Below, piece by piece: positions 25,369 to 61,414 of a DNA stretch of 64,000 bases. Within the stretch, counting starts at the first letter, position 1. Each line of letters begins with the position of its first letter. Source of the DNA: Alphaproteobacteria bacterium (GTDB taxonomy: Bacteria > Pseudomonadota > Alphaproteobacteria > MPNO01); assembly GCA_965203455.1 (NCBI GenBank), contig CBDBCV010000008.1:2604-66603 (forward strand), written 5' to 3'. The notes beneath the pieces are model-generated. The model worked only from the letters and a program-made list of their open reading frames with translations. It did no database searches and was not told the DNA's origin. Both the position numbers and the translations under genes were made by a program.

Positions 25369-25400
25369 CGTAAGCGTCCGGCGTGACCGCCCCTGCGTGG

Positions 25401-26402
25401 TCAGTCGGCGGCTTCCCGATCTTCTGCGGGCGCGGTGTTCCACGGCAGCAGATCGTCGATGCGGTTGATCCTGTAGTCGGGGATGCGTTCGAGGACCTGA
25501 GCAAGCCAGGCCTGCGGATCGACATCGTTGAGCCTGGCGGTCTCGATCAGGGTGTAGGCGATGGCGGCGGCCCTGCCGCCGCTGGCCGAGCCCATGAAGA
25601 GATAGTTCTTGCGGCCGAGCGCGATCGGCCTCATTGCGCGTTCGGCGGGGTTGTTGTCGATCTCGAGGAAGCCGTGCTCGAGATAGGGTCGAAGGCGCTT
25701 CATCCGGGTCAGGGCATGACGGATCGCCGCTGCCAGCGGGGTCTTGGCGGAGATTCTGGGCAGCTGCGATTGCAGCCACCGCTCCAGCTCGTCGAGGCAC
25801 GGCGCGGCCTTGGCCTGGCGGATGGCCGCGCGGTTCTCGGGCGGCTGCCCGCGGGCCTCCTTCTCGATAGCGTAGAGGGCGGCGATCCGTTCCAGCGCCT
25901 CGGCGGCGATCGCCGAGCCCTGGGCGGCATGGACGTCGAAGAACTTGCGTCGCACATGCGCCAGACAGGCCACCTCGCGGACCGGCCCGGCGCGCGCCAG
26001 CGCACCGAACCCGGCATAGCCGTCCGAGTGCATCCAGCCGGCGAAGCCTTCAAGATGCGCCTTCGGATGCGCCGCCTTGCGGTCGGCCGAGAAGCGGTAC
26101 CAGGCCGCCGGCGGCGCCTCGCCAGCCCAGGGCCGCTCGTCCCGCACGTAGGTCCAGGCCCGGCCGGTCGCCGTTTTGCCGGTTCCCGGCGCCAGCAGCT
26201 TGACCGGGGTGTCGTCGGCGAACAGGGCTTGTCCTTCCAGCACATGGCGCCCGATCGCATCGGCCAGGGGCTCCAGCAGCGCCGTCGCCTTGCCGACCCA
26301 GCCGGCGAGCGTCGAGCGGTCGAGCTCGACGCCGTCGCGGGCGAAGATGCGGGACTGGCGGTAGAGCGGCAAGCGAGTCGCGCGGGGGAATCTCACCCCC
26401 AC
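25401..26402 (-). CDS. tnpC: IS66 transposase TnpC, exon-2-encoded C-terminal part (starts …LPLYRQ).
   Basis: IS66 TnpC core 'LPLYRQSRIFARDGVELDRSTLA…'. DDE region. Confidence 0.9.
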   Translation of the reverse strand: MGVRFPRATRLPLYRQSRIFARDGVELDRSTLAGWVGKATALLEPLADAIGRHVLEGQALFADDTPVKLLAPGTGKTATGRAWTYVRDERPWAGEAPPAAWYRFSADRKAAHPKAHLEGFAGWMHSDGYAGFGALARAGPVREVACLAHVRRKFFDVHAAQGSAIAAEALERIAALYAIEKEARGQPPENRAAIRQAKAAPCLDELERWLQSQLPRISAKTPLAAAIRHALTRMKRLRPYLEHGFLEIDNNPAERAMRPIALGRKNYLFMGSASGGRAAAIAYTLIETARLNDVDPQAWLAQVLERIPDYRINRIDDLLPWNTAPAEDREAAD

Positions 26403-28222
26403 GCGCTCCCAGAACCGTACGTGAACCTCTCAGCTCATACGGCTCCCAGCGTCCGGCCCTGCCCGTGCACAAGGGTCCAATGGGCGAACCGCCACGGCTC
26501 CGCTTTCGCGATTCTGGCAAGCCAGAGACGAGCCTGACGCGGTCGTTGTCGGAAGCGTTTGAACTTCCGCATTGCCCATCGCTGCAAGTGGGCGTCTATC
26601 AGACGAAGGGTCGGATAGAGCGCCGACTTGTAGAATGCGCCGAAGTAGCCGATCCACCCTGCAATTTCGCGATGAAACATGCGGGCAAGGTCAAGCAGTG
26701 CCTTGTCGCTACGCCGTTGCAAACGCCACTGTCGCACGCGGCGCCGAAACGCCTTGAGCGCAGTCGGGCTGGCAGCCGGAAGGAACGAGACCCCGAACAA
26801 CCCGCCGCGCCACGCCGCGAACCTTGGCTGGAAACGGTAGCCCAGGAAGTCGAACGCGACCGTCGGGTAGTCCGCCTTGCGGTTGGTATCCTTGCAGTAG
26901 ACCACCTTGGTCTTCTGCGGATGGACCTCCAGGCCGCACTCGGCCAATCGGTCCGCAACCCGCCGCCAGAGGGTCTTTGCCGCCTCCTCCGTTCGACAAT
27001 GGCAGATTATATCGTCCGCATACCGTTCGAACGGAACATGCGGCATCGACCTTTTCATCCATTGATCGAACGCATAGTGCAGGAACAGGTTGGACAATAC
27101 TGGCGAAATTACCCCGCCCTGTGGCGTGCCCCTGTCCCGTGCGACAACGGTGCCGTCCTCCTCGATCACGGGAGCCTTCAACCAGCGCTCGACATAGAGC
27201 AGCACCCACCGGCAGTCCGTATGGTGACGAACGGCCTTCAGCAGCAACTCGTGGTCGATGTTGTCGAAGAACCCCTTGATGTCCATGTCCAGCACCCAGT
27301 CGTAGCGCCAGCATCGCCGACGCGCTGTCCGGATGGCGTCAATGGCGGATCGCTTCGGCCGATATCCGTATGAGTCCTCATGGAAAATCGGTTCCAACAA
27401 GGGCTCCAGATGTCGGCGAACAACCTCCTGAGCGATGCGGTCCGTGACCGTCGGTATGCCCAACGGGCGCTTCCCGCCGCCCTCCTTGGGGATGTTCACC
27501 CTGCGAACCGGAGGCGGCATATAGCTGCCTGAGGACATGCGATTCCAGAGCTTGTAGAGTTCCGGACCAAGCCGTTCCTCCAGACTCTCGACCGTCTGCC
27601 CATCTACTCCAGCCGCTCCCCGGTTTGCCTTCACATGCTTGAAGGCTTCCCAGACTTCCCTCTTTGCTATCGGGAACGGCTTTGCCCCTGTCATCCGGCT
27701 CCTCCTGTCACCAGTTGGCCGACGGCAGCGGCTGAACACCACAGCCCCTTCGGTCCAGCGCCATTACAGCGCCTTCATCCCTACTACGGGCTGTTCTGCC
27801 CCTGTGCCCCGCATCGGTACTCTGAGCCTTCCGGGGGCTGCCCGGTTGGCCGTCTCCCTTGGCATCGGGACGACAGGTTCTCCTGTTCCGCAAGAAAGCC
27901 TGTTCCGGGTTCACGCCGCCTTCGAGCCGGATGCCGCGTGGGCCGGACTCCAGGACTCCGCCCATGCTTGTCCCGGAGTGACCACCACCCCCGGTTCTGA
28001 CATCGACCATACGCTTTCGGAAGTTCATCGGCGGTTCGCTTTCGCTCGTCTCCCCGGACCTCACCTGACGAGATCGTCGTCCCGCCGTTTCCACGACGCT
28101 CACCACCATCGCTCTTTACGACAGCAGCTCGTGGTGGTTTGAGACCGACGCCTGATCGTCGACCCCGAGGGGCCTACCCTCATCTCTCTTGCAGTTGCGC
28201 ACCTCCTTTCATGGCGGTGCTT
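26400..28222 (-). mobile_element. Group II intron (bacterial, ORF in domain IV) inserted in IS66 tnpC. Boundaries ±10 bp.
   Basis: Domain V 'GAGCCGTATGAGCTGAGAGGTTCACGTACGGTTCT' (minus strand, 26411–26445). Domain VI hairpin 'gggggtgagattccccc'. 5' end near 'GTGTG' at ~28222. Encodes an RT/maturase. Confidence 0.9.
26435..27742 (-). CDS. Group II intron reverse transcriptase/maturase
   Basis: RT motifs ('RPLGIPTVTDRIAQE', 'FLGYRF', YADD as 'RYADDIICHC'). Maturase X domain. 435 aa. Confidence 0.93.
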   Translation of the reverse strand: MVFSRCRRPTGDRRSRMTGAKPFPIAKREVWEAFKHVKANRGAAGVDGQTVESLEERLGPELYKLWNRMSSGSYMPPPVRRVNIPKEGGGKRPLGIPTVTDRIAQEVVRRHLEPLLEPIFHEDSYGYRPKRSAIDAIRTARRRCWRYDWVLDMDIKGFFDNIDHELLLKAVRHHTDCRWVLLYVERWLKAPVIEEDGTVVARDRGTPQGGVISPVLSNLFLHYAFDQWMKRSMPHVPFERYADDIICHCRTEEAAKTLWRRVADRLAECGLEVHPQKTKVVYCKDTNRKADYPTVAFDFLGYRFQPRFAAWRGGLFGVSFLPAASPTALKAFRRRVRQWRLQRRSDKALLDLARMFHREIAGWIGYFGAFYKSALYPTLRLIDAHLQRWAMRKFKRFRQRPRQARLWLARIAKAEPWRFAHWTLVHGQGRTLGAV

Positions 28223-28797
28223 CAGGACACACGGTGATCGCAATACTTCGAGACCAGCACATGCGCCAGAAGGCCGGGGCCCGGTCGGCCGCGCTCGATC
28301 GGTCGCGGCGGCAGCGGCGCCTGGTGGAACTTCTCGCAGCCGCCGCAGGCCAGGCGCGGACGGACGATGCGCTTCACCACGAAGCGGCCGGGGATGTACT
28401 CCAGCTCCTCCGTCACATCCTCGCCGAGCCGCTTGAGACGGCCGCCGCAGTCCGCGCAGCGCTCGCCCGGCGCGAGAACCGTCTCCTCGCGCGGCAGGTG
28501 GTCCGGCAGGGGACGGCGCTTCGGCTGCTTCTTCGTGGCGGGCGTCGGCTCGGTCGGCGCCTCGGCCGCCCGCGCGATCTCCTCGTCCTCCAGCCCGAGA
28601 TCAAGCTGGTCGAGGGCCTCCGAGGTGACGCCGAAGCGCTGCCGCCGCAGACCCGCAAGCTGGTGCCTGAGCTTCTCGATCAACAGATCGCGGTTGCGCA
28701 GCTCGGCGTCCCGTGCCGCCAGTTCGGCCCGCGAGGCCAGCACCATCGCCTTCAACGCGGCGATGTCGTCGGGCAGGGAATGGGCCGCTTCGAGCAT
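28222..28797 (-). CDS. tnpC: IS66 transposase TnpC, exon-1-encoded N-terminal part.
   Basis: Leucine-zipper-like N-terminus. Zn-finger 'CADCGG…CGGC'. Ends '…LVSKYCDH', exactly where the C-part resumes 'LPLYRQ'. Confidence 0.9.
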   Translation of the reverse strand: MLEAAHSLPDDIAALKAMVLASRAELAARDAELRNRDLLIEKLRHQLAGLRRQRFGVTSEALDQLDLGLEDEEIARAAEAPTEPTPATKKQPKRRPLPDHLPREETVLAPGERCADCGGRLKRLGEDVTEELEYIPGRFVVKRIVRPRLACGGCEKFHQAPLPPRPIERGRPGPGLLAHVLVSKYCDHRVS

Positions 28798-28871
28798 GGC
28801 CGCATCCTACCCGAAGGGGCCGACAAAGGGAAGCCCGAATGACAGTCAACCCATTGTTTATAAACGGTGAA

Positions 28872-29246
28872 TCAGCCCGCGGCCAGCGGTCTCCAGGTGC
28901 GAACCGGCGCCCGCCAGTCGATCCCCTCAAGCAGCATCGACAGCTGCGCCGGCGTCACCGACACCTTCCCTTCCGATGCCGACGGCCACACGAAGCGGCC
29001 GCGCTCCAGACGCTTCGAGAACAGGCACGCACCCTGGCCGTCCCACCAGATCATCTTGATCAGGTCGCCCCGGCGGCCGCGGTAGATGAAGAGATGGCCG
29101 CAATGCGGATCCGCCTTCAATACCCGCTCCGCCTGCGCCGCGAGACCGGGGAACCCCTTGCGCATGTCGGTCACGCCGCAGGCCAGCCATACCCGGGTCG
29201 AGGAGGGAACCGGGATCATCCGCCAAGCGCCCGCACCACCCGGCAC
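28872..29246 (-). CDS. tnpB: IS66 accessory protein TnpB
   Basis: 124 aa. '…[37 protein letters not shown]…' is the IS66 Orf2 family. Confidence 0.9.
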
Positions 29247-29563
29247 AGCGCGTCCGCGTCGAACGACCCGAACGCGCTCACCCGGTGGCCGTTCGACAAC
29301 GCGATCTCGATCCGACCGTCCGATGCCGCGGCCGGCTCCAACGGCAGCGCATCGGGCACCACCTCCACCGGCAGGAAGGACGGCGCCTCCCCGGCATCGG
29401 CCGCCGGCCTGTAACGGGGATCGCGCCGCCAGGTGAAGATCAGGTTGGCGTTGACGTCATAGCGGCGCGCCACAACCGACACCGAGACACCGGGAGCGTA
29501 GCTCTGCGCCACGATCCGGCGCTTCTCGTCGTCCGACCAGAACCGGCGTACCCGACGTGGCAC
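29216..29563 (-). CDS. tnpA: IS66 accessory protein TnpA
   Basis: 115 aa. '[42 protein letters not shown]' is the IS66 Orf1 HTH. Confidence 0.9.
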
Positions 29564-29576
29564 CGCAGCCCCCTAA

Positions 29577-29609
29577 GATAGTGTCCATTAGCCGATAATG
29601 GACACTATC
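29577..29609. promoter_or_regulatory. Perfect 14-bp inverted repeat with 5-bp spacer upstream of IS66 tnpA (putative operator/promoter element).
   Basis: 'gatagtgtccatta gccga taatggacactatc'. Recurs at 30057–30089 and 61309–61341 in the other copies. Confidence 0.5.
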
Positions 29610-29682
29610 GACCTCTGGAACCTCACCACAGACTGCGGCTCCAAGCCGTCTCGCCACAAGGGCGGTCACGCCAGACGCTTAC

Positions 29683-30159
29683 GACGCTTACGGATCATCC
29701 GCCCAGCACCCGCACCACCCGGCACAGCGCGTCCGCGTCGAACGACCCGAACGCGCTCACCCGGTGGCCGTTCGACAACGCGACCTCAATGCGACCGTCC
29801 AATGCCGCGGGCAGCTCCGGCGGCGGGTCGGGCACCACCTCCACCGGCAGGAAGGACGGCGCCTCCCCGGCATCGGCCGCCGGCTGATAACGGGGATCGT
29901 GGCGCCAGGTGAAGATCAGGTTGGCGTTCACGTCATAGCGGCGTGCAACCACCGACACCGAGACACCAGGAGCGTAGCTCTGCGCCACGATCCGGCGCTT
30001 CTCGTCGTCCGACCAGAACCGGCGTACCCGACGCCTCATCGCAGCCCCCAAACGATAGTGTCCATTAGCCGATAATGGACACTATCGACCTCAGGAACCT
30101 CGCCACAGACTGCGGCGCCAAACCGACCCGCCACAAGGCCGGTCACGCCAAACGCTTAC
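29683..30159 (-). mobile_element. Partial second IS66-like copy (left end and tnpA' only, ~90% identical to copy 1), abutting copy 1.
   Basis: Sequence homologous to 29212–29682 of copy 1, with SNPs. Contains the tnpA paralogue at 29695..30051 and the IR '…ggtcacgccaaacgcttac'. Confidence 0.8.
29695..30051 (-). CDS. tnpA: IS66 TnpA paralogue (from the partial copy)
   Basis: 118 aa, ~90% identical to the TnpA at 29216..29563. Confidence 0.85.
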   Translation of the reverse strand: MGAAMRRRVRRFWSDDEKRRIVAQSYAPGVSVSVVARRYDVNANLIFTWRHDPRYQPAADAGEAPSFLPVEVVPDPPPELPAALDGRIEVALSNGHRVSAFGSFDADALCRVVRVLGG

Positions 30160-30753
30160 GATCAAGCCGGCAGCGACAACGGAGCGCGCCACGGCCGCCC
30201 GAACGACGGCGTAGCCGTAGTTGAGCAGCGCATTCACGCCTTCGGCCTGTCGGTCGCGTCGGAACGATCTGCCGAAAAGACGCGGCCAGTAGCGCTGAGC
30301 GGCCTGGGCTTCAAGGTTCTCTGGATCTCCCGAGCGCACCCGGCGCGCCATCGGAGCGAGGCCGCCGTGACTTCCGGTGAAATGGGAAAGCACGGTGGCC
30401 TGCTGAACGATCTTGGCCCGCACGATCGCCTGCCACGCCCGTTTTCGAACCGGCGCGCTGATCTCGACTTGCGCCCGGTGACGTTCGGTCTGGACGTGAT
30501 GCGCGTCGAGCGGAAGCATCATTCCGGCGGGTAGATGATCGCGGCCGGTGACCAGCACGGTGGCGCCTGCCTCCAGAAGAGAGAGAAAGACGGACTGCGT
30601 GTAGGTCGCACGGATGTCATCGACGATGACGACGCCGAGATCCTCAATGGGGAGCGTCGCTTTCGGCAGGTCTGGCCGTTCGACCACGAGCTGGCTATTG
30701 GCGACCGAGAGGCGGGTGCCGGGAGTCGAGAACTCGATGGTCTTGCGGATCAT
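30160..30753 (-). pseudogene. cas1: CRISPR-associated Cas1, 3'-truncated by the IS66 insertion (N-terminal ~197 aa retained).
   Basis: 'MIRKTIEFSTPGTRLSVANSQLVV…RRVRSGDPENLEAQAAQRYWPRLFG…NALLNYGYAVVRAAVARSVVAAGL' matches type II Cas1. After 'AAGL' the frame runs into the IS66 IR. Start overlaps the cas9 3' end by 14 bp. Confidence 0.85.
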
Positions 30754-30765
30754 CGCCGGGCACGC

Positions 30766-31296
30766 TCAGTCGTTGGCGGGACGGATGCGACCGATCGGAT
30801 CGACGGAGACCTTCCTGCCGCCGCTTGAGATGATCGTCTTCGCGCCCGGGCGAAACACCGTCACGCCTTCGGCATCGTCATGGTCGACCATGACGACCTG
30901 GCCGGCCGACCATACGCTCTCGACAATCTTAAGCCTGGTTTCTCCGTTTCTGGTGAACTGCAACGAGTCGCCGGGAGCCAGCGACATCACGAACTGCGCG
31001 CCGTCGCCACAATCCCGCCGGACGACGGGTTCGTGCCGCGCCTTGCGACGCGATGCCTCCAGCAGGCTGACTACCTCGTAATCGACGGTTCCGTCGCACA
31101 GCCGGTAGATCGCGATGTGATGATTGTTGCCCAGGTCGGCATAGCCCGTTGATGCTTTCGTCATCAGCTCGATCTGCCGCTTCACGCGCAGGCGGACCTT
31201 GCGGATTTCGGGGCCTTTCCTGCCCCGTTTGGGATAGCCATCCACGAACGCCGCGCCGGGATCGCCACCGTGCTTGTCGACCCATCCTTGGACGAT
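30766..31296 (-). pseudogene. cas9: cas9 C-terminal (PAM-interacting) fragment.
   Basis: '…IVQGWVDKHGGDPGAAFVDGYPKRGRK…NHHIAIYRL…RLKIVESVWS…GRKVSVDPIGRIRPAND*'. Joins in frame to the upstream cas9 segment when the IS3 copy plus one 3-bp duplication are removed. Confidence 0.85.
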
Positions 31297-31356
31297 TGAG
31301 GTGGCGTCGCAAAATCGGACAGGTCGTCAAGGTGTATTCCGCCGTGTGACGGAGGA

Positions 31357-31644
31357 ATGCGGATGAGCAAGCGACGCAGGTTTTCGGGGGAGCTGAAGGC
31401 GAAGATAGCCTTGGAGGCGCTACGGGGTGATCGGACGCTTCAGGAGATTGCCTCGAAGCACCAGGTGCATCCGAACCAGGTGGGTGTGTGGAAGCGCCAG
31501 GCGATGGAGGGTCTGGGGGAGGTCTTTTCCGGTGGAGGTGAGCGCCGGGCGCGGGATCACGAGAGCGAGGTCCGGGCTCTTCACGCCAAGATCGGGGAGT
31601 TGATCGTAGAGCGTGATTTTTTGTCACGCGGGTCCGGTCGCTGA
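31357..31644 (+). CDS. IS3-family transposase OrfA (HTH)
   Basis: 'MRMSKRRRFSGELKAKIALEALRGDRTLQEIASKHQVHPNQVGVWKRQ'. Confidence 0.9.
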   Translation: MRMSKRRRFSGELKAKIALEALRGDRTLQEIASKHQVHPNQVGVWKRQAMEGLGEVFSGGGERRARDHESEVRALHAKIGELIVERDFLSRGSGR

Positions 31645-31664
31645 GCCGGTCCGGGAGACGGGCG

Positions 31665-32630
31665 ATGGTTGTGCGGGGCCACCCGTCGTTGAGCCTGACC
31701 CGGCAATGCCGTCTGCTGTCGATCGGGCGCTCGTCGCTCTATGACCGGCCGAAGGGGGAGAGCGCGGAGACGCTGGCTCTGATGCGCCGGATCGACGCGC
31801 TGTTCCTCAAGTATCCGTTCTACGGCGCCCGCCAGATGGTTCGGCATCTGCGCCGCGAGGGGGTGCGGATCGGGCGGCGGCGGGCCGCTCGCCTGATGCG
31901 CCTGCTTGGTCTTCAGGCGGTCTATCGGGCGCCGCGGACCAGTGCGCCGCACCTCGGGCACCGGGTTTATCCATATCTGCTGCGGGGTCTGGCGATCGAG
32001 CGGCCGAACCATGTGTGGTGCGCCGACATCACCTACATCCCGGTGCGGCGCGGCTTCCTCTACCTGGTGGCGATCATGGACTGGGCGAGCCGCTGCGTCC
32101 TGGCCTGGCGGCTGTCGAACACGCTGGACGCGGGGTTCTGTGTCGAGGCTCTCGACGAAGCCCTGGCGCGCCATGGCACCCCGCAGATCTTCAACACCGA
32201 CCAGGGCAGCCAGTTCACCGGCTTCGCCTTCACCGCGCGCCTGCGGGAGGCCGGTATCCGCATCTCGATGGACGGCCGCGGCCGGTGCATGGACAACATC
32301 TTCATCGAGCGGCTGTGGCGCTCGCTCAAATACGAGGCGGTCTACCTGCACGAGATCGCCGACGGCTTCGCAGCCCGGCGCGTCATCGGCCAGTGGATCG
32401 GCTTCTACAACACCGAGAGACCGCACTCGGCACTCGGCGGGCGGACGCCGGCCGAGGCCTACCGGGGCGACACGCCTGTGGATATGATGGACAAGCCGCT
32501 TCGCGCCTTGACCACATACCCACAGGCGCAACAGCAGCAGCAGAAAGATCGATCCAAGAGGATTCTGGCGGCACAAACTTCAACCGGAATACACCTTGAA
32601 AACGCCGTCAGCCTGTCCGACAAACCGACG
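31665..32630 (+). CDS. IS3-family transposase OrfB (DDE integrase core), expressed by frameshift from orfA. 3' end approximate.
   Basis: '…HVWCADITYIP…LVAIMDWASRCVLAW…FNTDQGSQFT…ERLWRSLKYE…'. The listed ORF extends to 32819 only because the IS end lacks a stop in this frame. Confidence 0.85.
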
Positions 32631-32638
32631 CCACCTCA

Positions 32639-32700
32639 GATGTCGCGCACGCCGTCATCGACGATGTCGACAATCTTAAGGATTGCGTTGGCTCGGCAGA
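32639..32700 (-). pseudogene. cas9: Short internal cas9 segment between the IS3 and IS91-family insertions (upper boundary uncertain).
   Basis: Frame '…KIVDIVDDGVRDI' is continuous with the C-terminal fragment across the IS3 copy. Confidence 0.45.
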
Positions 32701-32975
32701 GCCTACTCAATCCGATTGAGCGAAGGCGCGGTCGTCCGGCGCTGGCGTTGGCTATGTGGGAAGTATGTGGAGACAGCCGTCGGGCCGGACTGGCGGTGTG
32801 CCTGTTGTTGTCCGGTTGAGGCAGCTGATTACGACGGCTGCCGGTTTTTGGCGTCGGGCAGGCGAAGATCGAAGGGGCATCCGGGCCCTGCCTGGCATGC
32901 GGTCGTGCTCGCGGCCGCGCCGGTTGGTTGGCGGACAAGATGTCTGCGCTGTCGGGATCGAGGCAGGAAGCCGGT

Positions 32976-34199: not shown

Positions 34200-34205
34200 G
34201 GCAGT

Positions 34206-35090: not shown

Positions 35091-35280
35091 TCTCCCGGGA
35101 TGACGACAGCGCGCCGCCGGTCCGTTCCGGCGACGGACCATCGAAGAGATCGATGCTAAACCGAGGACAGCCGCCGGACGCAGAAACCGGCACCAAACCC
35201 CACCATCACATCAAATTGTCAGAAAAGACCGAGACCGCGAAAGCGACAACTGCGCGAAGCGCCTTCGTTCAATCCTGGTT

Positions 35281-37841: not shown

Positions 37842-37847
37842 GCGAGG

Positions 37848-39126: not shown

Positions 39127-39135
39127 CATGCGAGG

Positions 39136-44450: not shown

Positions 44451-44458
44451 CCACCTCA

Positions 44459-44908: not shown

Positions 44909-44968
44909 TGAGGTGGCGTCGCAAAATCGGACAGGTCGTCAAGGTGTATTCCGCCGTGTGACGGAGGA

Positions 44969-45256: not shown

Positions 45257-45276
45257 GCCGGTCCGGGAGACGGGCG

Positions 45277-50022: not shown

Positions 50023-50123
50023 CGCCGCCCCCGACGCGCTTCGCCCGGACGGCCGGTCTATAGGGCGGACGGCCTATGGTGTCAAACGAAAATCCGTCCC
50101 AAATCCAAAATCGACGCCGTGGT

Positions 50124-52564: not shown

Positions 52565-52587
52565 GAACTGGAGCCGGGGCGATTGGT

Positions 52588-55500
52588 GTGACCGCCAGAA
52601 AATACAATCCGGGCTTTCTCTCCGACGACGAACTGGTCGCGACCTTCTGCGTCCGGACGGCCGAATACGACTCCCTGGTCGAGGCGTTGCGCGAATGTTC
52701 GGGCCGCGCGAACACCCATCAGATCGTGATCGGGCCGCGCGGCAGCGGAAAGACGAGCCTGCTGCTGCGGGTCGCTGCTGAGGTGCGGCGCGATGCCGAT
52801 CTCTCGGCGCGCTTTTTCCCGATCGTGTTCGCGGAGGAAAGCTATGAGGTCTCGACCGCCGGCGAGTTCTGGCTCGAATGCCTCTCCCGGCTGGCCGGGC
52901 AGGCGCCGCGCCGGGATGGCGATGTCGACCTGCACCGCACCTTCGAGGATCTACGCACCATCCATGACGACCGGACCCTGGAGGACCGGTGCCTCGGCGC
53001 GTTGCAGGACTTTGCCGACCGGGAAGCGAAGCGTCTCGTTCTGGTCGTCGAGAACCTCAACATGATGTTCAGGGACATCGGCGACGAAGACGCGGGCTGG
53101 CGGCTGCGGAAGACGCTGCAGACCGAGCCGCGGATCGTTCTGCTTGCGAGCGCGACCAGCCGGTTCGACCAGATGGACGATCCGAAGGAAGCGCTCTACG
53201 AGTTGTTCCGGGTGATCCGGTTGGACCCTCTCGGCACGGAAGACTGCGCGACCTTGTGGCAGACCGTGTCGGGGCAAGCGCGGGCGCCGCGGACGATCCG
53301 GGCGCTGCGGATTCTCACGGGCGGAAGTCCGAGACTGCTGACCATCGTGGCCCGGTTCGGCGCGAACCTGTCGTTCCGCGAGCTGATGGCCGAACTCCTC
53401 GACCTGGTCGACGATCATACCGAGTATTTCAAGAGCCATCTCGATGCGCTCCCTGCGCAAGAGCGCAAGGTGTATCTCGCCCTTGCCGATCTCTGGAAAC
53501 CGGCGAACGCGCGCGAGGTCGCGGACCGGACCAGACTCGGGACCAGCCAGTGCAGCGCCCAGCTTGCCCGGCTGGTCGACAAGGGCGCGGTCGAGGTGAG
53601 CGGCGGCAGCGCGCGGCGCAAGCTCTATTACCTGACCGAGCGGCTCTACAACATCTACTATCTGATGCGTCGGGCGCGCGGATCGACGCCGCTGGTCGAT
53701 GCGCTGATCCGCTTCATGGAGGCCTTCTACTCCACCGACAAACTGACAGAAATCGTCGCCCGCATGGCGCGGAAAGCGTCGAGGTTCGACGGCGGCGCGT
53801 TGGAGCTCCATCGGATGGCATTCGAGCGTCTCGTCGAACTGCCGTCCCTCAAGCCGCATCGCGAGGAGTTGCGGGCGCTTGCGCCGCCCGCCTTTGCCTA
53901 TGCGCCGCGTGAGTTTTCTGCGGTATTTGCGGTGCGAACCGGCACGCCGCGCCCGACCACCGATCCGGAAATCGTGCCGGGCGTCGATTTGGCCGCAACA
54001 GGCCGCATGGGCGCGCCGCGCATCCGCCCCACCCTCGCCGTTGACACGGTAGATCCGTCGGTCGCGGAGGGTCTGCTGGGGAAGGCGCTGGCTCTGGCGG
54101 AAAGCGGTCGGTTGGAAGACGCCGTGGCGATCTGGGATGAGGTTGTCCGGATGTTCGGGGAGAGCGACAAGCCGGCGGACCTCGAACAGGTTTCGATGGC
54201 GCTCGTCAACAAGGGTCAGGCGCTGGGCCGGCTGGGAAGAGCGGAAGAAGCGCTGGCCGTGCTGGACGATGTGGTGCAGCGTTTCAGGATGAACGACGGG
54301 GAAAGCTACCCTCTGGCGGTGGCGACAGCACTCGCCAGCAAGGGTGAAATGCTGAGCGCTCTCGACCGACACATGGAGGCACTGGCGGCATGGGACGAGG
54401 TCGCACGACGCTTCGGCGAAAGCCGGATGCCAGCGCTTGAGGCGCCGGTGGCTCATGCGATGGTCGGGACGGCAGCAGTCGCGCTGAATGAATTGGACCG
54501 GCCCCAGCAAGCCTTGGATTCCTGCGATGAAATGCTGGAACGTTTCGGCAAGAGCGCTTCGCCGGCGCTGCACCGTGAAGTGGCGGCGGCCATGGTCGGA
54601 CGGGGTCACGCGCTCATCGCGCTGAAGCGCGTCGACGAGGCGATAAGCGCCTGGGGCGCCGCGGTGGAGCGTTTCGGGAGGAGCGACTCTCCCAAAATCC
54701 TCGAACAGGTGGCCCCGGCGCTTGCGAACGTGGGCGTGGCGCTCTTCCGGTCCGGCCGGGTGGAGGAGGCGCTGACAGCGTTCGATGGGGTCGTGCAAAG
54801 CTACGGGGCAAGCGATTCGCCGATCCTGCGGGAGGTGGTCGCGCGCTGTTTCGTCGACAGGGGCAATGTGCTGGCCGCGTTGAACCGGAAAACCGAAGCG
54901 CTCTCGTCGTGGGAAGAGGCGATCATGGCCTTCGGGACGGGATGCTCGCCGGGGACGGCAAAACCGCATTGCAACGCGCTGATGAACAAGGCTGCGGCGC
55001 TGCGCGACGCGGGAAGGCATGAGGAAGCGCTGGAGTTGTGGGGCGACGTGGTGGAACGCTTCGGGGCCGACGATCGGCCCGGAATTCTCACCATGGTCGC
55101 GAGTGCGCAGACCTTCAGATGCGCATTGCTGGAACAGTCGGGCCGATACGAAGAGGCGCTTGTTGTATGGCGGCAGGTCGAAGACCGGTTCGGGAACAGC
55201 GACGCGCCGGAGTGGATGGAGCTTATCGCCAGCTCGTACATGCAGAGATCCGCCAACCTGTTCAGGCTGAACCGGCTGGAAGAGGCGCTTGCTGTCTGCG
55301 ACCGGGCGGTGAATCGCTTCGAGGGGAGTGACCTGCCAGCGGTTATCGATGCCGTTGCCGGGATTCTCGTAAACAAGGGAATTCTGCTCGCAAAGTCCGG
55401 CAGACACGAAGAGGCTCTGGCGGTCTGGGACGACATCAAACGCCGTTTCGGAAACAGCGACGAGCCGGAACTTCTGAAGCAGGTTGCCTCGGCCCTGGTC

Positions 55501-56337
55501 AACAAAGGCGCGACGCTGGTTCATATGAGCCGGCCGGAGGATGCGGTTGGGCTATGGAACGACGTCGTGTGCCGGTTCGGGGAAGGCGATGCATCCCCGT
55601 ATCACGAGGATATTGCGACGGCTGTCCTCAACAGGGTGCAGGTTCTGGGCTTGTTGAAACGGCTGGACGAGGCGCTTGAAGCCTGTGACGAGGCGCTCCG
55701 GCGGTTTGGGAGCAGCGAAGAGCCCTACGGTGTCGAGGCCGTCGCGCAAGCCCTCGCCAGCAAGGGCTCGTTCCTTGTCGACCTGGACCGGACCGAGGAG
55801 GGGTTCGCGGCGTGGGACGAGGTAGTTCGGCGCTTCGAGGCGAGCGATGCACCGGCGCTTCGAGACGCAGCGGAATTGGCGTTGTGCAGGCGGGCACAGC
55901 ACGAATTGGCCGAAGGCCGGGCGAGGACTGCCCTGGGATTCCTCGATCGTGCGCTTCTGCAGACGCGGGCGGGTATGCCAGTCACCAGATTGCACGGCTA
56001 TTTGGTCCGGGCCTGGGCGAATCTGGCGGAAGGCAACGGCGAAGCATGCGCCGACGATGTCGAGAAGGCGTTGTCGATCCTTCCCGAAGTGGACATGTTG
56101 CCGAGGCGCGCGCTGGTTGTCCTGGCCGACCTCTCGGCGGGCGTTGGGCCGGAAAGGATGTGCGATCTGATCAAGTCATCGCCCGCTGGCGACCTCCTGC
56201 TTCCGCTGAGGACGGCGCTGGAACGGGAGCTCGGGTTGGAGCTGAGGGTAGCCAGGGAAGTCGAAGAGATTGCCGAAGATATACGCCGGGAATTGCTGGT
56301 CGGGCGCGAGAGCGAAAAGCATCGGCGGGTGACTTGA
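52588..56337 (+). CDS. Large STAND-like NTPase (paralogous P-loop ATPase + winged helix + ~13 tandem TPR-like units). GTG start.
   Basis: Walker A 'GPRGSGKTSLL', Walker B 'LVLVVENL'. wHTH '…SARRKLYYLTE'. From ~aa 520, a ~35-aa unit '…EEAL.xWDEVV.RFG.SD.P.L..VA.AL.NKG…' repeats. Confidence 0.75.
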   Translation: MTARKYNPGFLSDDELVATFCVRTAEYDSLVEALRECSGRANTHQIVIGPRGSGKTSLLLRVAAEVRRDADLSARFFPIVFAEESYEVSTAGEFWLECLSRLAGQAPRRDGDVDLHRTFEDLRTIHDDRTLEDRCLGALQDFADREAKRLVLVVENLNMMFRDIGDEDAGWRLRKTLQTEPRIVLLASATSRFDQMDDPKEALYELFRVIRLDPLGTEDCATLWQTVSGQARAPRTIRALRILTGGSPRLLTIVARFGANLSFRELMAELLDLVDDHTEYFKSHLDALPAQERKVYLALADLWKPANAREVADRTRLGTSQCSAQLARLVDKGAVEVSGGSARRKLYYLTERLYNIYYLMRRARGSTPLVDALIRFMEAFYSTDKLTEIVARMARKASRFDGGALELHRMAFERLVELPSLKPHREELRALAPPAFAYAPREFSAVFAVRTGTPRPTTDPEIVPGVDLAATGRMGAPRIRPTLAVDTVDPSVAEGLLGKALALAESGRLEDAVAIWDEVVRMFGESDKPADLEQVSMALVNKGQALGRLGRAEEALAVLDDVVQRFRMNDGESYPLAVATALASKGEMLSALDRHMEALAAWDEVARRFGESRMPALEAPVAHAMVGTAAVALNELDRPQQALDSCDEMLERFGKSASPALHREVAAAMVGRGHALIALKRVDEAISAWGAAVERFGRSDSPKILEQVAPALANVGVALFRSGRVEEALTAFDGVVQSYGASDSPILREVVARCFVDRGNVLAALNRKTEALSSWEEAIMAFGTGCSPGTAKPHCNALMNKAAALRDAGRHEEALELWGDVVERFGADDRPGILTMVASAQTFRCALLEQSGRYEEALVVWRQVEDRFGNSDAPEWMELIASSYMQRSANLFRLNRLEEALAVCDRAVNRFEGSDLPAVIDAVAGILVNKGILLAKSGRHEEALAVWDDIKRRFGNSDEPELLKQVASALVNKGATLVHMSRPEDAVGLWNDVVCRFGEGDASPYHEDIATAVLNRVQVLGLLKRLDEALEACDEALRRFGSSEEPYGVEAVAQALASKGSFLVDLDRTEEGFAAWDEVVRRFEASDAPALRDAAELALCRRAQHELAEGRARTALGFLDRALLQTRAGMPVTRLHGYLVRAWANLAEGNGEACADDVEKALSILPEVDMLPRRALVVLADLSAGVGPERMCDLIKSSPAGDLLLPLRTALERELGLELRVAREVEEIAEDIRRELLVGRESEKHRRVT

Positions 56338-56651
56338 CCGTTTTCGGAAGTGGCGTCGGCTTGCTGTCGCACCAGTCAGGCCCGCGCAATGGATGTGACG
56401 GCGGCCATACCAGACGCCGCTCCCGCGGAAGGGATTGCCGACACATTCTGAACCGCTGGAATCCGCCTGCGCGGTCGATCGCGCACGGCTTCGGCTTCCC
56501 GGAATGCTTGCCGCGCGGCCCCGGACGCCGTGTTGCAATTGTGTTGATTCGGTCCTGGAGCGATCCAGCGGCATTTCAGGACCATTCATAATGCATTGTT
56601 ATTACAGGATATTTTTACGGTCATCCTGTAGGATTTCTACCATATAGCCGC

Positions 56652-57014
56652 GTGGCCAACCTCAGCATCGCCACCGATGAGTCCTACATGGATCGCCAGA
56701 CCGGCGAGCGGGTCGACCGCACCGAGTGGCACCGGGTCGTGACCTTCCAGAACGGCCTCATCGACATGCTGGAGCGGCATGCCAGGAAGGGCCGGCTGGT
56801 CCACGCCGAGGGCAAGCTCCAGACCCGGCGCTGGAAGAAGGAGGGCGAGGACTCCGACCGCTTCTCGACCGAGATCCTTCTGGTCCCGGGCGGGCGCGTC
56901 CAGTTCCTCGACAAGGCCAACGGCGCCCGGCCGCAGCCCGACCCGGACATGGCGAGCGACGCCGCTCCGGTTGCGGCGCCCGCCGACATGGACGGCGACC
57001 GGATTCCGTTCTGA
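56652..57014 (+). pseudogene. ssb: Single-stranded DNA-binding protein, 5'-truncated (lacks ~35 N-terminal residues of the OB fold).
   Basis: 'ANLSIATDESYMDRQTGERVDRTEWHRVVTF…' and C-terminal acidic tail '…DMDGDRIPF'. Upstream is an AT-rich hairpin 'tacaggatatttttacggtcatcctgta' rather than the ssb 5' end. Confidence 0.75.
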
Positions 57015-57032
57015 TCGGCGTCACGCTTCCTC

Positions 57033-57060
57033 CCCGACCTGGCCGGCGCTTCGGCGCCGG
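57033..57060 (+). terminator. Rho-independent terminator after ssb
   Basis: 'gccggcgcttcggcgccggtc' followed by T7. Confidence 0.7.
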
Positions 57061-57132
57061 TCTTTTTTTGCTGCCGGTCCGGAGGCGTCCCCGGTTCCAT
57101 GGTAAGCGTCCGGCGTGACCGCCCCTGCGTGG

Positions 57133-58134
57133 TCAGTCGGCGGCTTCCCGATCTTCTGCGGGCGCGGTGTTCCACGGCAGCAGATCGTCGATGCGGTTGA
57201 TCCTGTAGTCGGGGATGCGTTCGAGGACCTGAGCAAGCCAGGCCTGCGGATCGACATCGTTGAGCCTGGCGGTCTCGATCAGGGTGTAGGCGATGGCGGC
57301 GGCCCTGCCGCCGCTGGCCGAGCCCATGAAGAGATAGTTCTTGCGGCCGAGCGCGATCGGCCTCATTGCGCGTTCGGCGGGGTTGTTGTCGATCTCGAGG
57401 AAGCCGTGCTCGAGATAGGGTCGAAGGCGCTTCATCCGGGTCAGGGCATGACGGATCGCCGCTGCCAGCGGGGTCTTGGCGGAGATTCTGGGCAGCTGCG
57501 ATTGCAGCCACCGCTCCAGCTCGTCGAGGCACGGCGCGGCCTTGGCCTGGCGGATGGCCGCGCGGTTCTCGGGCGGCTGCCCGCGGGCCTCCTTCTCGAT
57601 AGCGTAGAGGGCGGCGATCCGTTCCAGCGCCTCGGCGGCGATCGCCGAGCCCTGGGCGGCATGGACGTCGAAGAACTTGCGTCGCACATGCGCCAGACAG
57701 GCCACCTCGCGGACCGGCCCGGCGCGCGCCAGCGCACCGAACCCGGCATAGCCGTCCGAGTGCATCCAGCCGGCGAAGCCTTCAAGATGCGCCTTCGGAT
57801 GCGCCGCCTTGCGGTCGGCCGAGAAGCGGTACCAGGCCGCCGGCGGCGCCTCGCCAGCCCAGGGCCGCTCGTCCCGCACGTAGGTCCAGGCCCGGCCGGT
57901 CGCCGTTTTGCCGGTTCCCGGCGCCAGCAGCTTGACCGGGGTGTCGTCGGCGAACAGGGCTTGTCCTTCCAGCACATGGCGCCCGATCGCATCGGCCAGG
58001 GGCTCCAGCAGCGCCGTCGCCTTGCCGACCCAGCCGGCGAGCGTCGAGCGGTCGAGCTCGACGCCGTCGCGGGCGAAGATGCGGGACTGGCGGTAGAGCG
58101 GCAAGCGAGTCGCGCGGGGGAATCTCACCCCCAC
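57133..58134 (-). CDS. tnpC: IS66 TnpC C-terminal part (copy 2)
   Basis: Identical to 25401..26402. Confidence 0.9.
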   Translation of the reverse strand: MGVRFPRATRLPLYRQSRIFARDGVELDRSTLAGWVGKATALLEPLADAIGRHVLEGQALFADDTPVKLLAPGTGKTATGRAWTYVRDERPWAGEAPPAAWYRFSADRKAAHPKAHLEGFAGWMHSDGYAGFGALARAGPVREVACLAHVRRKFFDVHAAQGSAIAAEALERIAALYAIEKEARGQPPENRAAIRQAKAAPCLDELERWLQSQLPRISAKTPLAAAIRHALTRMKRLRPYLEHGFLEIDNNPAERAMRPIALGRKNYLFMGSASGGRAAAIAYTLIETARLNDVDPQAWLAQVLERIPDYRINRIDDLLPWNTAPAEDREAAD

Positions 58135-59954
58135 GCGCTCCCAGAACCGTACGTGAACCTCTCAGCTCATACGGCTCCCAGCGTCCGGCCCTGCCCGTGC
58201 ACAAGGGTCCAATGGGCGAACCGCCACGGCTCCGCTTTCGCGATTCTGGCAAGCCAGAGACGAGCCTGACGCGGTCGTTGTCGGAAGCGTTTGAACTTCC
58301 GCATTGCCCATCGCTGCAAGTGGGCGTCTATCAGACGAAGGGTCGGATAGAGCGCCGACTTGTAGAATGCGCCGAAGTAGCCGATCCACCCTGCAATTTC
58401 GCGATGAAACATGCGGGCAAGGTCAAGCAGTGCCTTGTCGCTACGCCGTTGCAAACGCCACTGTCGCACGCGGCGCCGAAACGCCTTGAGCGCAGTCGGG
58501 CTGGCAGCCGGAAGGAACGAGACCCCGAACAACCCGCCGCGCCACGCCGCGAACCTTGGCTGGAAACGGTAGCCCAGGAAGTCGAACGCGACCGTCGGGT
58601 AGTCCGCCTTGCGGTTGGTATCCTTGCAGTAGACCACCTTGGTCTTCTGCGGATGGACCTCCAGGCCGCACTCGGCCAATCGGTCCGCAACCCGCCGCCA
58701 GAGGGTCTTTGCCGCCTCCTCCGTTCGACAATGGCAGATTATATCGTCCGCATACCGTTCGAACGGAACATGCGGCATCGACCTTTTCATCCATTGATCG
58801 AACGCATAGTGCAGGAACAGGTTGGACAATACTGGCGAAATTACCCCGCCCTGTGGCGTGCCCCTGTCCCGTGCGACAACGGTGCCGTCCTCCTCGATCA
58901 CGGGAGCCTTCAACCAGCGCTCGACATAGAGCAGCACCCACCGGCAGTCCGTATGGTGACGAACGGCCTTCAGCAGCAACTCGTGGTCGATGTTGTCGAA
59001 GAACCCCTTGATGTCCATGTCCAGCACCCAGTCGTAGCGCCAGCATCGCCGACGCGCTGTCCGGATGGCGTCAATGGCGGATCGCTTCGGCCGATATCCG
59101 TATGAGTCCTCATGGAAAATCGGTTCCAACAAGGGCTCCAGATGTCGGCGAACAACCTCCTGAGCGATGCGGTCCGTGACCGTCGGTATGCCCAACGGGC
59201 GCTTCCCGCCGCCCTCCTTGGGGATGTTCACCCTGCGAACCGGAGGCGGCATATAGCTGCCTGAGGACATGCGATTCCAGAGCTTGTAGAGTTCCGGACC
59301 AAGCCGTTCCTCCAGACTCTCGACCGTCTGCCCATCTACTCCAGCCGCTCCCCGGTTTGCCTTCACATGCTTGAAGGCTTCCCAGACTTCCCTCTTTGCT
59401 ATCGGGAACGGCTTTGCCCCTGTCATCCGGCTCCTCCTGTCACCAGTTGGCCGACGGCAGCGGCTGAACACCACAGCCCCTTCGGTCCAGCGCCATTACA
59501 GCGCCTTCATCCCTACTACGGGCTGTTCTGCCCCTGTGCCCCGCATCGGTACTCTGAGCCTTCCGGGGGCTGCCCGGTTGGCCGTCTCCCTTGGCATCGG
59601 GACGACAGGTTCTCCTGTTCCGCAAGAAAGCCTGTTCCGGGTTCACGCCGCCTTCGAGCCGGATGCCGCGTGGGCCGGACTCCAGGACTCCGCCCATGCT
59701 TGTCCCGGAGTGACCACCACCCCCGGTTCTGACATCGACCATACGCTTTCGGCAGTTCATCGGCGGTTCGCTTTCGCTCGTCTCCCCGGACCTCACCTGA
59801 CGAGATCGTCGTCCCGCCGTTTCCACGACGCTCACCACCATCGCTCTTTACGACAGCAGCTCGTGGTGGTTTGAGACCGACGCCTGATCGTCGACCCCGA
59901 GGGGCCTACCCTCATCTCTCTTGCAGTTGCGCACCTCCTTTCATGGCGGTGCTT
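58132..59954 (-). mobile_element. Group II intron (copy 2). Boundaries ±10 bp.
   Basis: Identical to the 26400..28222 copy. Confidence 0.9.
58167..59474 (-). CDS. Group II intron RT/maturase (copy 2)
   Basis: Identical to 26435..27742. Confidence 0.93.
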   Translation of the reverse strand: MVFSRCRRPTGDRRSRMTGAKPFPIAKREVWEAFKHVKANRGAAGVDGQTVESLEERLGPELYKLWNRMSSGSYMPPPVRRVNIPKEGGGKRPLGIPTVTDRIAQEVVRRHLEPLLEPIFHEDSYGYRPKRSAIDAIRTARRRCWRYDWVLDMDIKGFFDNIDHELLLKAVRHHTDCRWVLLYVERWLKAPVIEEDGTVVARDRGTPQGGVISPVLSNLFLHYAFDQWMKRSMPHVPFERYADDIICHCRTEEAAKTLWRRVADRLAECGLEVHPQKTKVVYCKDTNRKADYPTVAFDFLGYRFQPRFAAWRGGLFGVSFLPAASPTALKAFRRRVRQWRLQRRSDKALLDLARMFHREIAGWIGYFGAFYKSALYPTLRLIDAHLQRWAMRKFKRFRQRPRQARLWLARIAKAEPWRFAHWTLVHGQGRTLGAV

Positions 59955-60529
59955 CAGGACACACGGTGATCGCAATACTTCGAGACCAGCACATGCGCCA
60001 GAAGGCCGGGGCCCGGTCGGCCGCGCTCGATCGGTCGCGGCGGCAGCGGCGCCTGGTGGAACTTCTCGCAGCCGCCGCAGGCCAGGCGCGGACGGACGAT
60101 GCGCTTCACCACGAAGCGGCCGGGGATGTACTCCAGCTCCTCCGTCACATCCTCGCCGAGCCGCTTGAGACGGCCGCCGCAGTCCGCGCAGCGCTCGCCC
60201 GGCGCGAGAACCGTCTCCTCGCGCGGCAGGTGGTCCGGCAGGGGACGGCGCTTCGGCTGCTTCTTCGTGGCGGGCGTCGGCTCGGTCGGCGCCTCGGCCG
60301 CCCGCGCGATCTCCTCGTCCTCCAGCCCGAGATCAAGCTGGTCGAGGGCCTCCGAGGTGACGCCGAAGCGCTGCCGCCGCAGACCCGCAAGCTGGTGCCT
60401 GAGCTTCTCGATCAACAGATCGCGGTTGCGCAGCTCGGCGTCCCGTGCCGCCAGTTCGGCCCGCGAGGCCAGCACCATCGCCTTCAACGCGGCGATGTCG
60501 TCGGGCAGGGAATGGGCCGCTTCGAGCAT
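59954..60529 (-). CDS. tnpC: IS66 TnpC N-terminal part (copy 2)
   Basis: Identical to 28222..28797. Confidence 0.9.
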   Translation of the reverse strand: MLEAAHSLPDDIAALKAMVLASRAELAARDAELRNRDLLIEKLRHQLAGLRRQRFGVTSEALDQLDLGLEDEEIARAAEAPTEPTPATKKQPKRRPLPDHLPREETVLAPGERCADCGGRLKRLGEDVTEELEYIPGRFVVKRIVRPRLACGGCEKFHQAPLPPRPIERGRPGPGLLAHVLVSKYCDHRVS

Positions 60530-60603
60530 GGCCGCATCCTACCCGAAGGGGCCGACAAAGGGAAGCCCGAATGACAGTCAACCCATTGTTTATAAACGGT
60601 GAA

Positions 60604-60978
60604 TCAGCCCGCGGCCAGCGGTCTCCAGGTGCGAACCGGCGCCCGCCAGTCGATCCCCTCAAGCAGCATCGACAGCTGCGCCGGCGTCACCGACACCTTC
60701 CCTTCCGATGCCGACGGCCACACGAAGCGGCCGCGCTCCAGACGCTTCGAGAACAGGCACGCACCCTGGCCGTCCCACCAGATCATCTTGATCAGGTCGC
60801 CCCGGCGGCCGCGGTAGATGAAGAGATGGCCGCAATGCGGATCCGCCTTCAATACCCGCTCCGCCTGCGCCGCGAGACCGGGGAACCCCTTGCGCATGTC
60901 GGTCACGCCGCAGGCCAGCCATACCCGGGTCGAGGAGGGAACCGGGATCATCCGCCAAGCGCCCGCACCACCCGGCAC
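60604..60978 (-). CDS. tnpB: IS66 TnpB (copy 2)
   Basis: Identical to 28872..29246. Confidence 0.9.
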
Positions 60979-61295
60979 AGCGCGTCCGCGTCGAACGACC
61001 CGAACGCGCTCACCCGGTGGCCGTTCGACAACGCGATCTCGATCCGACCGTCCGATGCCGCGGCCGGCTCCAACGGCAGCGCATCGGGCACCACCTCCAC
61101 CGGCAGGAAGGACGGCGCCTCCCCGGCATCGGCCGCCGGCCTGTAACGGGGATCGCGCCGCCAGGTGAAGATCAGGTTGGCGTTGACGTCATAGCGGCGC
61201 GCCACAACCGACACCGAGACACCGGGAGCGTAGCTCTGCGCCACGATCCGGCGCTTCTCGTCGTCCGACCAGAACCGGCGTACCCGACGTGGCAC
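60948..61295 (-). CDS. tnpA: IS66 TnpA (copy 2)
   Basis: Identical to 29216..29563. Confidence 0.9.
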
Positions 61296-61414
61296 CGCAG
61301 CCCCCTAAGATAGTGTCCATTAGCCGATAATGGACACTATCGACCTCTGGAACCTCACCACAGACTGCGGCTCCAAGCCGTCTCGCCACAAGGGCGGTCA
61401 CGCCAGACGCTTAC

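Follow-up and report, generated by a model that had tools for sequence, protein, structure and literature searches.

What are two nearly identical 4.3-kb repeats doing on either side of an interval of about 36 kb in the genome of an alphaproteobacterium of the MPNO01 lineage: are they the ends of a unit that moves as a block, as an initial annotation of this DNA had proposed, or have they another origin? The repeats lie on contig CBDBCV010000008.1 of the assembly GCA_965203455.1, within a window of 64,000 nucleotides (positions 2,604 to 66,603 of the contig) that we analysed as a whole and whose numbering is used below. Each is a complete insertion sequence (IS) of the IS66 family with a group II intron inside its transposase gene, and the flanks of each belong to different loci. 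We lean, with moderate confidence, towards RecA-type homologous recombination as the process that made both chimeras; it would have joined copies of this multi-copy IS family that lay in direct repeat.

The two copies occupy positions 25370-29682 (copy 1; minus strand, delimited by its inverted repeats, Pfam domains and alignment) and 57102-61414 (copy 2; minus strand, delimited by alignment to copy 1, Rfam matches and self-BLAST). They are 4,313 bp long, lie in direct orientation and are spaced by 31.7 kb, as confirmed by sequence comparison and self-BLAST, so that the coordinates and orientation first assigned to them proved exact. They had also been described as identical, but they agree at 4,312 of 4,313 positions, the sole mismatch (28021 A vs 59753 C) falling within the intron. 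Terminal inverted repeats of 23 nt close each copy and coincide exactly with the limits of the repeat, identity extending 0 nt beyond the element on the left and 1 nt, attributable to chance, on the right. Their limits at the IS termini and their single difference in 4,313 positions point to copies derived from transposition: what is repeated is the mobile element, not a larger segment of the chromosome that was duplicated.

The 8-bp flanks are GTTCGACC on the left and GACGCTTA on the right of copy 1, and GTTCCATG on the left and GCTGAGCG on the right of copy 2. Compared in every pairing and on both strands, they contain no 8-bp duplication, in agreement with the previous statement that neither copy has one. 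That the four flanks differ also stands, although two details changed: the left flank of copy 2 had been quoted as 'tccatggg', an error that leaves the conclusion unaffected, and the right flank of copy 1, which does differ from the left one, is not ordinary DNA but a repeat of the IS terminus followed by the remnant of another IS66-type element (hereafter IS66'). To obtain four different flanks in direct orientation, the element must have occupied four or more ancestral sites and undergone two or more rearrangements, or else one double crossover replaced a segment.

Does this IS normally duplicate its target? Duplications of 8 bp are characteristic of the IS66 family, and further copies of the element itself indicate that it makes them. 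An exact-sequence look-up of its TnpB protein found matches in 76 blocks of the collection searched. One contig from ENA, ERZ25068685:ctg6850_8x_l (820,788 bp; loci L021-L028), contains no fewer than eight copies of this IS66 at 99.3-100% identity, some intron-bearing and some intron-less, together with the IS3 and IS256 elements of our window at 100% identity; its mobilome is that of the window or a very close relative of it. Perfect 8-bp duplications (GAAGTCGG, GGCGCCGG and CTTCATCC) surround three of its five informative IS66 copies, which argues that the duplications missing from the window were lost by rearrangement after insertion. The remaining two have no duplication, one of them having a right flank common to another copy, and chimeric copies are common in this lineage. 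Within the window itself, simple insertions of IS3 and IS256-like elements keep their footprints, which we count in favor of a post-insertion rearrangement of the IS66 copies. An intron-less relative at locus L015 was also considered as a test; it has no duplication but is uninformative because it sits inside another IS66-type element. The ENA contig is extremely IS-dense, with several IS66 copies nested in one another or broken by the same IS3 and IS256, and an IS that encodes a DUF772 transposase is present on it in tandem.

The identity of the DNA at the four junctions tells how heterogeneous the flanks are. The left outer flank (25190-25369, minus strand) comes from a calcineurin-like metallophosphatase gene, of which it retains a 3' fragment of roughly the final 57-60 codons; it gives a weak match to PF16370 (MetallophosC) that reaches the end of the profile, and its homologues, at 65-79% amino acid identity, are C-termini of metallophosphatase genes. 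Its similarity to locus L010 (83.5% nucleotide identity) continues up to the IS junction, where copy 1 cuts it cleanly. We ruled out that it might be a piece of the vanA-like gene found in relatives, to which it has no similarity. On the inner side, the terminal 9 bp of the IS occur a second time, in direct orientation, immediately past copy 1 (GACGCTTAC, 29683-29691, read from the sequence); this tandem repeat occurs at copy 1 only, none being present at copy 2, and neither simple insertion nor homologous recombination accounts for it. Then comes the IS66' remnant (29692-30159, minus strand; 468 bp), which comprises tnpA' and the adjacent terminal inverted repeat and was recognized by self-BLAST, alignment and an HTH_Tnp_1 match. 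It is 92% identical to the matching part of copy 1, is broken at the tnpA/tnpB boundary, and ends with its own terminus at 30159, abutting a type II cas1 gene (30162-30753, minus strand) whose 3' end IS66' has cut off (Pfam Cas_Cas1, profile positions 5-212 of 283; PADLOC Cas1_II, E = 1e-66).

The inner flank of copy 2 (56652-57101, plus strand) consists of an ssb gene (Pfam SSB, profile positions 26-98), a terminator-like hairpin and 30 bp of spacer. The ssb gene is N-terminally truncated, with approximately 25 codons missing, and keeps its native C-terminal tail (...DRIPF); the GC-rich hairpin followed by a T run, identified by eye, lies at approximately 57046-57072. An AT-rich stretch (...TTATTACAGGATATTTTTACGG..., 56580-56660) precedes ssb and looks like a further breakpoint with no recognizable IS end. 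Outside copy 2, the right flank (61415-61531, plus strand) is made of the final 38 codons of a gene for a LigXa-like Rieske oxygenase, which the element has cut cleanly. It matches the 3' end of the Rieske gene of locus L007 (92% nucleotide and 89% amino acid identity, with homology up to the junction), which is adjacent to a gene of the Old Yellow Enzyme (OYE) family. In the window, as in L007, the Rieske fragment is convergent with an OYE-family flavin oxidoreductase gene (61538-62659, minus strand; Pfam Oxidored_FMN and orthologues), the two having nucleotide identities of 92% and 89% to their counterparts. The ATG of the OYE gene has been replaced by the end of an IS256-family element at codon 1/2 (62657-62662), the open reading frame (ORF) reading through into the IS, and the OYE gene and Rieske fragment remain as a 1.2-kb (1,245 bp) relic of core DNA between two ISs. 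This IS256-family element (Mutator-type transposase; Pfam Transposase_mut; BLAST matches in L021, L022 and L024) extends on the minus strand from 62660 past the window edge at 64000, and is 100% identical to copies nested in the intron-bearing IS66 on the related contig.

The outer junctions had been said to cut two unrelated genes, now identifiable as the metallophosphatase and the LigXa-like Rieske gene, whose missing halves were found nowhere in the 64-kb window. The assertion that the copies flank all the IS-rich DNA did not survive, since the IS256-family element at 62660 lies outside copy 2; together with the synteny break to the left of copy 1 described below, this means that the copies do not delimit the IS-rich DNA.

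The left 25 kb of the window is core chromosome, with pst-phoU-phoB, typA, dapB, sspB, a transfer-messenger RNA (tmRNA) gene of alpha type, thyA and TRAP genes, and is collinear with six contigs of other assemblies at 81-92% nucleotide identity. Collinearity stops at the stop codon of a fused TRAP permease gene with a DctM domain (25189; 25183-25195), 180 bp to the left of copy 1, and non-syntenic DNA begins at 25190, already outside the element. The site past this stop codon is a three-way polymorphism among the window and loci L001, L002, L003, L005 and L006, which diverge within a few bases: three relatives have a vanA-like gene, a Mo-hydroxylase and the his operon; L002 has a toxin-antitoxin pair and an ABC transporter, the short contig L005 beginning with the same sequence; and the variant of the window is the metallophosphatase fragment. 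No OYE gene occurs near the TRAP permease gene in the five relatives examined. Orthologues of OYE, at 85-91% amino acid identity, lie in other neighbourhoods in two relatives, one of which, from the same sample as L001, has OYE on a different contig. The TRAP and OYE neighbourhoods thus being apart, none of the relatives examined shows an empty site; the check proposed in the initial annotation, a search for TRAP joined to OYE, yielded no such junction, five relatives having other genes after TRAP. The metallophosphatase and Rieske genes also occupy unrelated neighbourhoods in relatives. The possibility that they are neighbours in L010 was rejected, the Rieske protein of L010 being only 33% identical over the Rieske domain and not an orthologue. 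On neither side does synteny outline a genomic island bounded by the two copies.

Against the plasmid collection, the left core region matched at two short stretches only, both in thyA, and the inner segment 46300-57101 was unmatched. Exact-protein look-ups of the TAXI solute receptor and of the intron-encoded protein, which would have revealed near-identical strains, were unmatched; a 26-mer across the exon-intron junction was absent from genome_contigs and metagenome_contigs, and a 25-mer across the DctM/metallophosphatase junction from metagenome_contigs. The tmRNA of the core region is of the two-piece (permuted) alphaproteobacterial type (14204-14523) and lies between sspB and thyA, collinear in relatives; no integrase or island is attached to its gene at 14204-14523.

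Both copies are chimeric in their flanks. If homologous recombination is responsible, each would carry the left flank of one ancestral insertion site and the right flank of another. Copy 1 would unite an insertion in the metallophosphatase gene (left) with one in the IS66' remnant within cas1 (right), and copy 2 an insertion in the spacer past the ssb terminator (left) with one in the LigXa-like Rieske gene (right). What the sequences show directly is the anatomy, the chimeric flanks, the lack of an empty site in the relatives compared and the normal 8-bp duplication of this IS; that the rearrangements were homologous recombinations or deletions, as well as their number and their order, we infer. 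At least two events would be required, most simply two deletions, each merging two IS copies into one. Lost in them would be the 5' portions of the two interrupted genes, whatever else there was of IS66' and, from the CRISPR-Cas locus, the array, cas2 and the 3' end of cas1. Recombination is favored by the many identical copies in this lineage, by the frequency of chimeras and by the DNA missing beside each junction. The clean gene cuts at both outer junctions, with homology to the intact genes of relatives up to the IS end, support recombination or deletion, and the IS load and the shredded CRISPR-Cas locus are typical of IS expansion with gene loss. IS-mediated adjacent deletion had in fact been listed as an option in the initial annotation, and IS-mediated deletion or recombination fits all the data, including the related contig, where two of five copies are chimeric. 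The copies would have been recently active, and their pairing would be a by-product of genome erosion through IS expansion, not the two ends of a mobile 36-kb unit. As for the 9-bp repeat beside copy 1, it is consistent with a scenario in which an earlier copy had inserted in IS66' at GGATCATC, a second one then inserted into the last 8-9 bp of the first, and the resulting tandem pair collapsed.

Several points weigh against recombination. The collections searched contained no near-identical strain that might show reciprocal junctions, and the data fit both recombination and transposase-mediated adjacent deletion. The identical IS3 copies in direct orientation mostly retain their duplications, which means that recombination has not homogenised all repeats. 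The 9-bp repeat of the terminus is not expected from simple homologous recombination. The his operon that follows the TRAP genes in relatives must persist somewhere in this genome, so that the history may be partly one of translocation or inversion.

The alternative closest to recombination is a transposase-mediated adjacent deletion, in which each copy, staying in place, independently attacked a nearby target in the same molecule, deleting the DNA on one side together with one copy of the duplication. It, too, would leave each copy with an original flank on one side and a new one on the other, lacking a duplication, with clean junctions and with neighbouring DNA gone. The IS66-type ends that cluster or nest in the window and in relatives suggest that the transposase often targets nearby or IS66-like DNA, and the terminus repeated over 9 bp beside copy 1 is suggestive of abnormal transposase action at that end. 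Nevertheless, it requires two independent rare events, and the chimera on the related contig that has a flank in common with another copy is more simply explained by recombination. To our knowledge, replicative or intramolecular deletion is not established for the IS66 family. We consider this alternative unlikely.

In principle, a single event could have produced the same picture. An incoming IS-[27.4 kb]-IS segment might have replaced resident DNA by a double crossover with IS copies residing in the metallophosphatase and Rieske genes, giving four different flanks and the direct orientation in one step. The inner segment has a G+C content of 0.58-0.70, lower than the approximately 0.68-0.72 of the left core, and its content looks accessory (cas genes, a pair formed by an ATPase and an NTPase with tetratricopeptide (TPR) repeats, a methyltransferase fragment and ssb). 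However, there is no sign that the metallophosphatase and Rieske genes were ever co-located, as they occur in different contexts and on different contigs in relatives. The inner segment carries no plasmid or conjugative-element genes, is unmatched in the plasmid collection and lay between IS copies in none of the 10 related loci that were inspected. Such a replacement seems to us quite improbable.

An assembly artefact, by which the flanks of different genomic IS copies would have been joined across the 4.3-kb repeat, is somewhat harder still to accept. The many near-identical copies in this lineage are the setting in which repeat mis-joins arise. Yet the one-base difference indicates that the two copies were resolved separately, short-read contigs normally break at such repeats instead of spanning two of them, and a separate assembly also contains chimeras of this IS.

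A composite transposon, or a transpositional cointegrate in which a donor replicon became fused through replicative transposition, is very improbable: two complete, near-identical direct copies with intact inverted repeats do surround accessory DNA, but no 8-bp duplication links the outer flanks (GTTCGACC vs GCTGAGCG) or the inner ones (GACGCTTA vs GTTCCATG), which contradicts both the block movement and the cointegrate first suggested; the outer flanks belong to distinct genes, being the 3' ends of the metallophosphatase (minus strand) and the Rieske gene (plus strand), from unrelated neighbourhoods in relatives, and cannot be halves of one contiguous target; the join of TRAP to OYE exists in no relative examined; and synteny breaks 180 bp outside copy 1.

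Alongside these explanations, the IS66 element of this lineage may have a preference for targets in or next to the ends of IS66-type elements, an idea that we consider rather doubtful. Pointing towards it are the nested self-insertions on ERZ25068685:ctg6850_8x_l, the IS66-type ends lying tens of bp apart in L012 and L015, and copy 1 itself, which abuts the IS66' remnant and carries the 9-bp repeat of its own terminus. If true, self-targeting would generate tandem or nested copies that collapse by recombination, and would be a systematic source of duplication-less copies and large deletions. It might even fuse distant chromosomal regions or replicons, of which the TRAP-OYE junction could be one case.

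The anatomy of the element is that of an IS66 family member, as the initial annotation had recognized together with its nested intron; Pfam and Rfam matches agree. In copy 1, the inverted repeats lie at 25370-25392 and 29660-29682, match at 22 of 23 positions (GTAAGCGTCYGGCGTGACCGCCC; consensus form GTAAGCGTC[C/T]GGCGTGACCGCCC) and begin with GTAAGCG. All genes are on the minus strand: tnpA (29216-29563; Pfam HTH_Tnp_1, PF01527), tnpB (28872-29219; TnpB_IS66, PF05717, in an ORF at 28872-29246) and tnpC, the last divided into exon 1 (28233-28797; LZ_Tnp_IS66 and zf-IS66) and exon 2 (25401-26371; DDE_Tnp_IS66 and IS66_C). PF13007, PF13005, PF03050 and PF13817 are matched across the two exon-encoded parts of TnpC, which joined in silico yield an intact ORF of 511 amino acids. 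The length of the IS minus the intron is 2,452 bp. With its DDE-type TnpC, upstream tnpA and tnpB and inverted repeats, the element belongs to the IS66 family.

The intron measures 1,861 bp and lies on the minus strand at 26372-28232 in copy 1, as delimited with Rfam and an intron-less copy; the same intron occupies 58104-59964 (minus strand) in copy 2. Both copies score above the gathering score for RF01999 (112.9 bits) and RF00029 (56.8 bits), covering domains D1-D4 and D5/D6. The intron-encoded protein (26435-27694, 419 amino acids) has reverse transcriptase (RT) and maturase domains (Pfam RVT_1, PF00078, and GIIM, PF08388, in an ORF at 26435-27742), and Pfam detected no endonuclease domain in it. 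The 5' end of the intron is GUGUG and its 3' end ...CGCU, vs the usual AY. In L012/L020, a 5.46-Mb contig of a metagenome-assembled genome, this IS is present at 99.6% identity in an intron-less form that joins the exons at positions 26371 and 28233 (...GAGCGGCA/GGTGATCGC..., the slash marking the junction), which fixes the intron limits at 26372-28232. Its RNA domains, its RT/maturase and its precise insertion at a homing site identify it, on sequence criteria, as a group II intron. Since it is oriented in the sense of tnpC, it is predicted to be spliceable from the transposase mRNA, restoring TnpC.

The codons interrupted by the intron encode ...YCDH/LPLYRQ. On plasmid 1 of Paracoccus denitrificans PD1222 (L009, NC_008688.1 16387-24358), an IS66 tnpC carries a group II intron (ltrA) at the same site, and the alignment with our element is unbroken over both exon-intron junctions at 78.5% identity, suggesting that the association between IS66 and the intron at this site is either old or repeatedly re-established. 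Terminal inverted repeats, sought there to check for a duplication, were not found at the Paracoccus locus; the plasmid collection contained only distant relatives of the IS, at no more than 78.5% identity, and a literature search gave nothing useful on the duplication behaviour of IS66 or on IS66 elements with group II introns. A different IS66 tnpC in the window (47672-49534) has kept the 3'-exon side of the homing site, with 17 identical nucleotides (TGCCGCTCTACCGCCAG, 48647-48725); its 5'-exon side differs and it has no intron.

Each part of this phenomenon is familiar. The IS66 family (IS66, IS679 and ISRm14 type; ISfinder) is characterized by tnpA-tnpB-tnpC, inverted repeats starting with GTAAGCG and an 8-bp duplication, a description that reportedly derives from the work of Han and colleagues on IS679 in 2001. 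Our element shares the three-ORF layout, a TnpC with leucine zipper, zinc-finger, DDE and C-terminal domains, the 23-nt inverted repeats from GTAAGCG and, at intact insertions on the related contig, the 8-bp duplications; by contrast, its tnpC is split by a group II intron and both copies in the window lack duplications. Group II introns residing in ISs are known, for example RmInt1 in ISRm2011-2 of Sinorhizobium meliloti, and bacterial group II introns are said to have been surveyed by Dai and Zimmerly in 2002. Shared with such introns are the RT/maturase ORF, the sense orientation in a transposase gene and the intron-less IS copies alongside; unlike for RmInt1-type introns, the host is an IS66 tnpC, at the site given above.

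Genomes that have undergone IS expansion, such as those of Bordetella pertussis (IS481), Shigella (IS1), Yersinia pestis (IS100) and Burkholderia mallei (IS407A), offer another comparison, IS copies without matching duplications marking deletions and inversions in them. The resemblance lies in the many identical ISs, nested insertions, pseudogenised genes and chimeric copies with flanks of different loci; the difference is that the host here is an uncultured, environmental, Rhodospirillales-like alphaproteobacterium. Compound transposons (Tn10, Tn5, Tn9) likewise have passenger genes between two copies of one IS, but here there is no outer-end duplication, no contiguous target and no sign that the block ever moved. 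Transposase genes that contain a group II intron are well known, and duplication-less IS copies are classic scars of recombination in IS-expanded genomes. The phenomenon is an ordinary one.

The 36-kb interval should not be annotated as a composite transposon or a discrete mobile island; the most fitting reading of its two IS copies is as scars left by rearrangement in a genome or lineage in IS expansion and gene decay, a decay that has inactivated the type II CRISPR-Cas locus. It is a reasonable inference that the 4.3-kb direct repeats could recombine with each other, deleting or amplifying the 31.7-kb interval, and they are plausible sites of structural variation between strains, of concern for assembly and comparative work. 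The existence of this IS66 unit with and without its intron at more than 99% identity might provide a natural system for the effect of the intron on transposition. Beyond annotation, the significance of the locus is small.

ISs are numerous in the region: three IS3, two IS256, one IS91 accompanied by a tyrosine recombinase, and no fewer than four of IS66 type. The three IS3-family copies (31297-32638, 43117-44458 and 44909-46250) are in direct orientation, with one mismatch among them and 450 bp between the second and the third; the first two retain 3-bp duplications (GAT/GAT and AAT/AAT, respectively) and the third has GAG vs GAT. An IS256-like element at 37846-39127 keeps the duplication ATGCGA. 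The decayed type II CRISPR-Cas locus spans 30162-39127 on the minus strand. The N-terminal part of cas9, running from 37841 to 35211 with an intact RuvC-I motif, has the IS256-like element directly upstream; two insertions then interrupt the gene, an IS91-type Y2 transposase accompanied by a tyrosine recombinase (32976-35141) and an IS3 copy, and its likely C-terminal part, recognized by eye with no Pfam match, runs from 31296 to 30766. No cas2 is present after cas1, and no CRISPR array was found in the inner segment.

Further to the right, an IS66-type element at 46924-50135 has 22-nt inverted repeats (GTAAGCGGTTAAAGCACGGCGT, 95% complementary) and no 8-bp duplication. Its tnpA and tnpB are on the plus strand, its tnpC (620 amino acids) is on the minus strand, and a fragment of a type II methyltransferase lies inside it (49357-50022): it is internally rearranged or chimeric. 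At 51317-56337, an AAA ATPase of 415 amino acids, with a weak PADLOC match to mad8, adjoins an NTPase of 1,275 amino acids in which AAA_16, weak STAND-type NTPase matches and TPR repeats were detected and which matched no defence model; judging from these domains, the two could form a defence or signalling pair.

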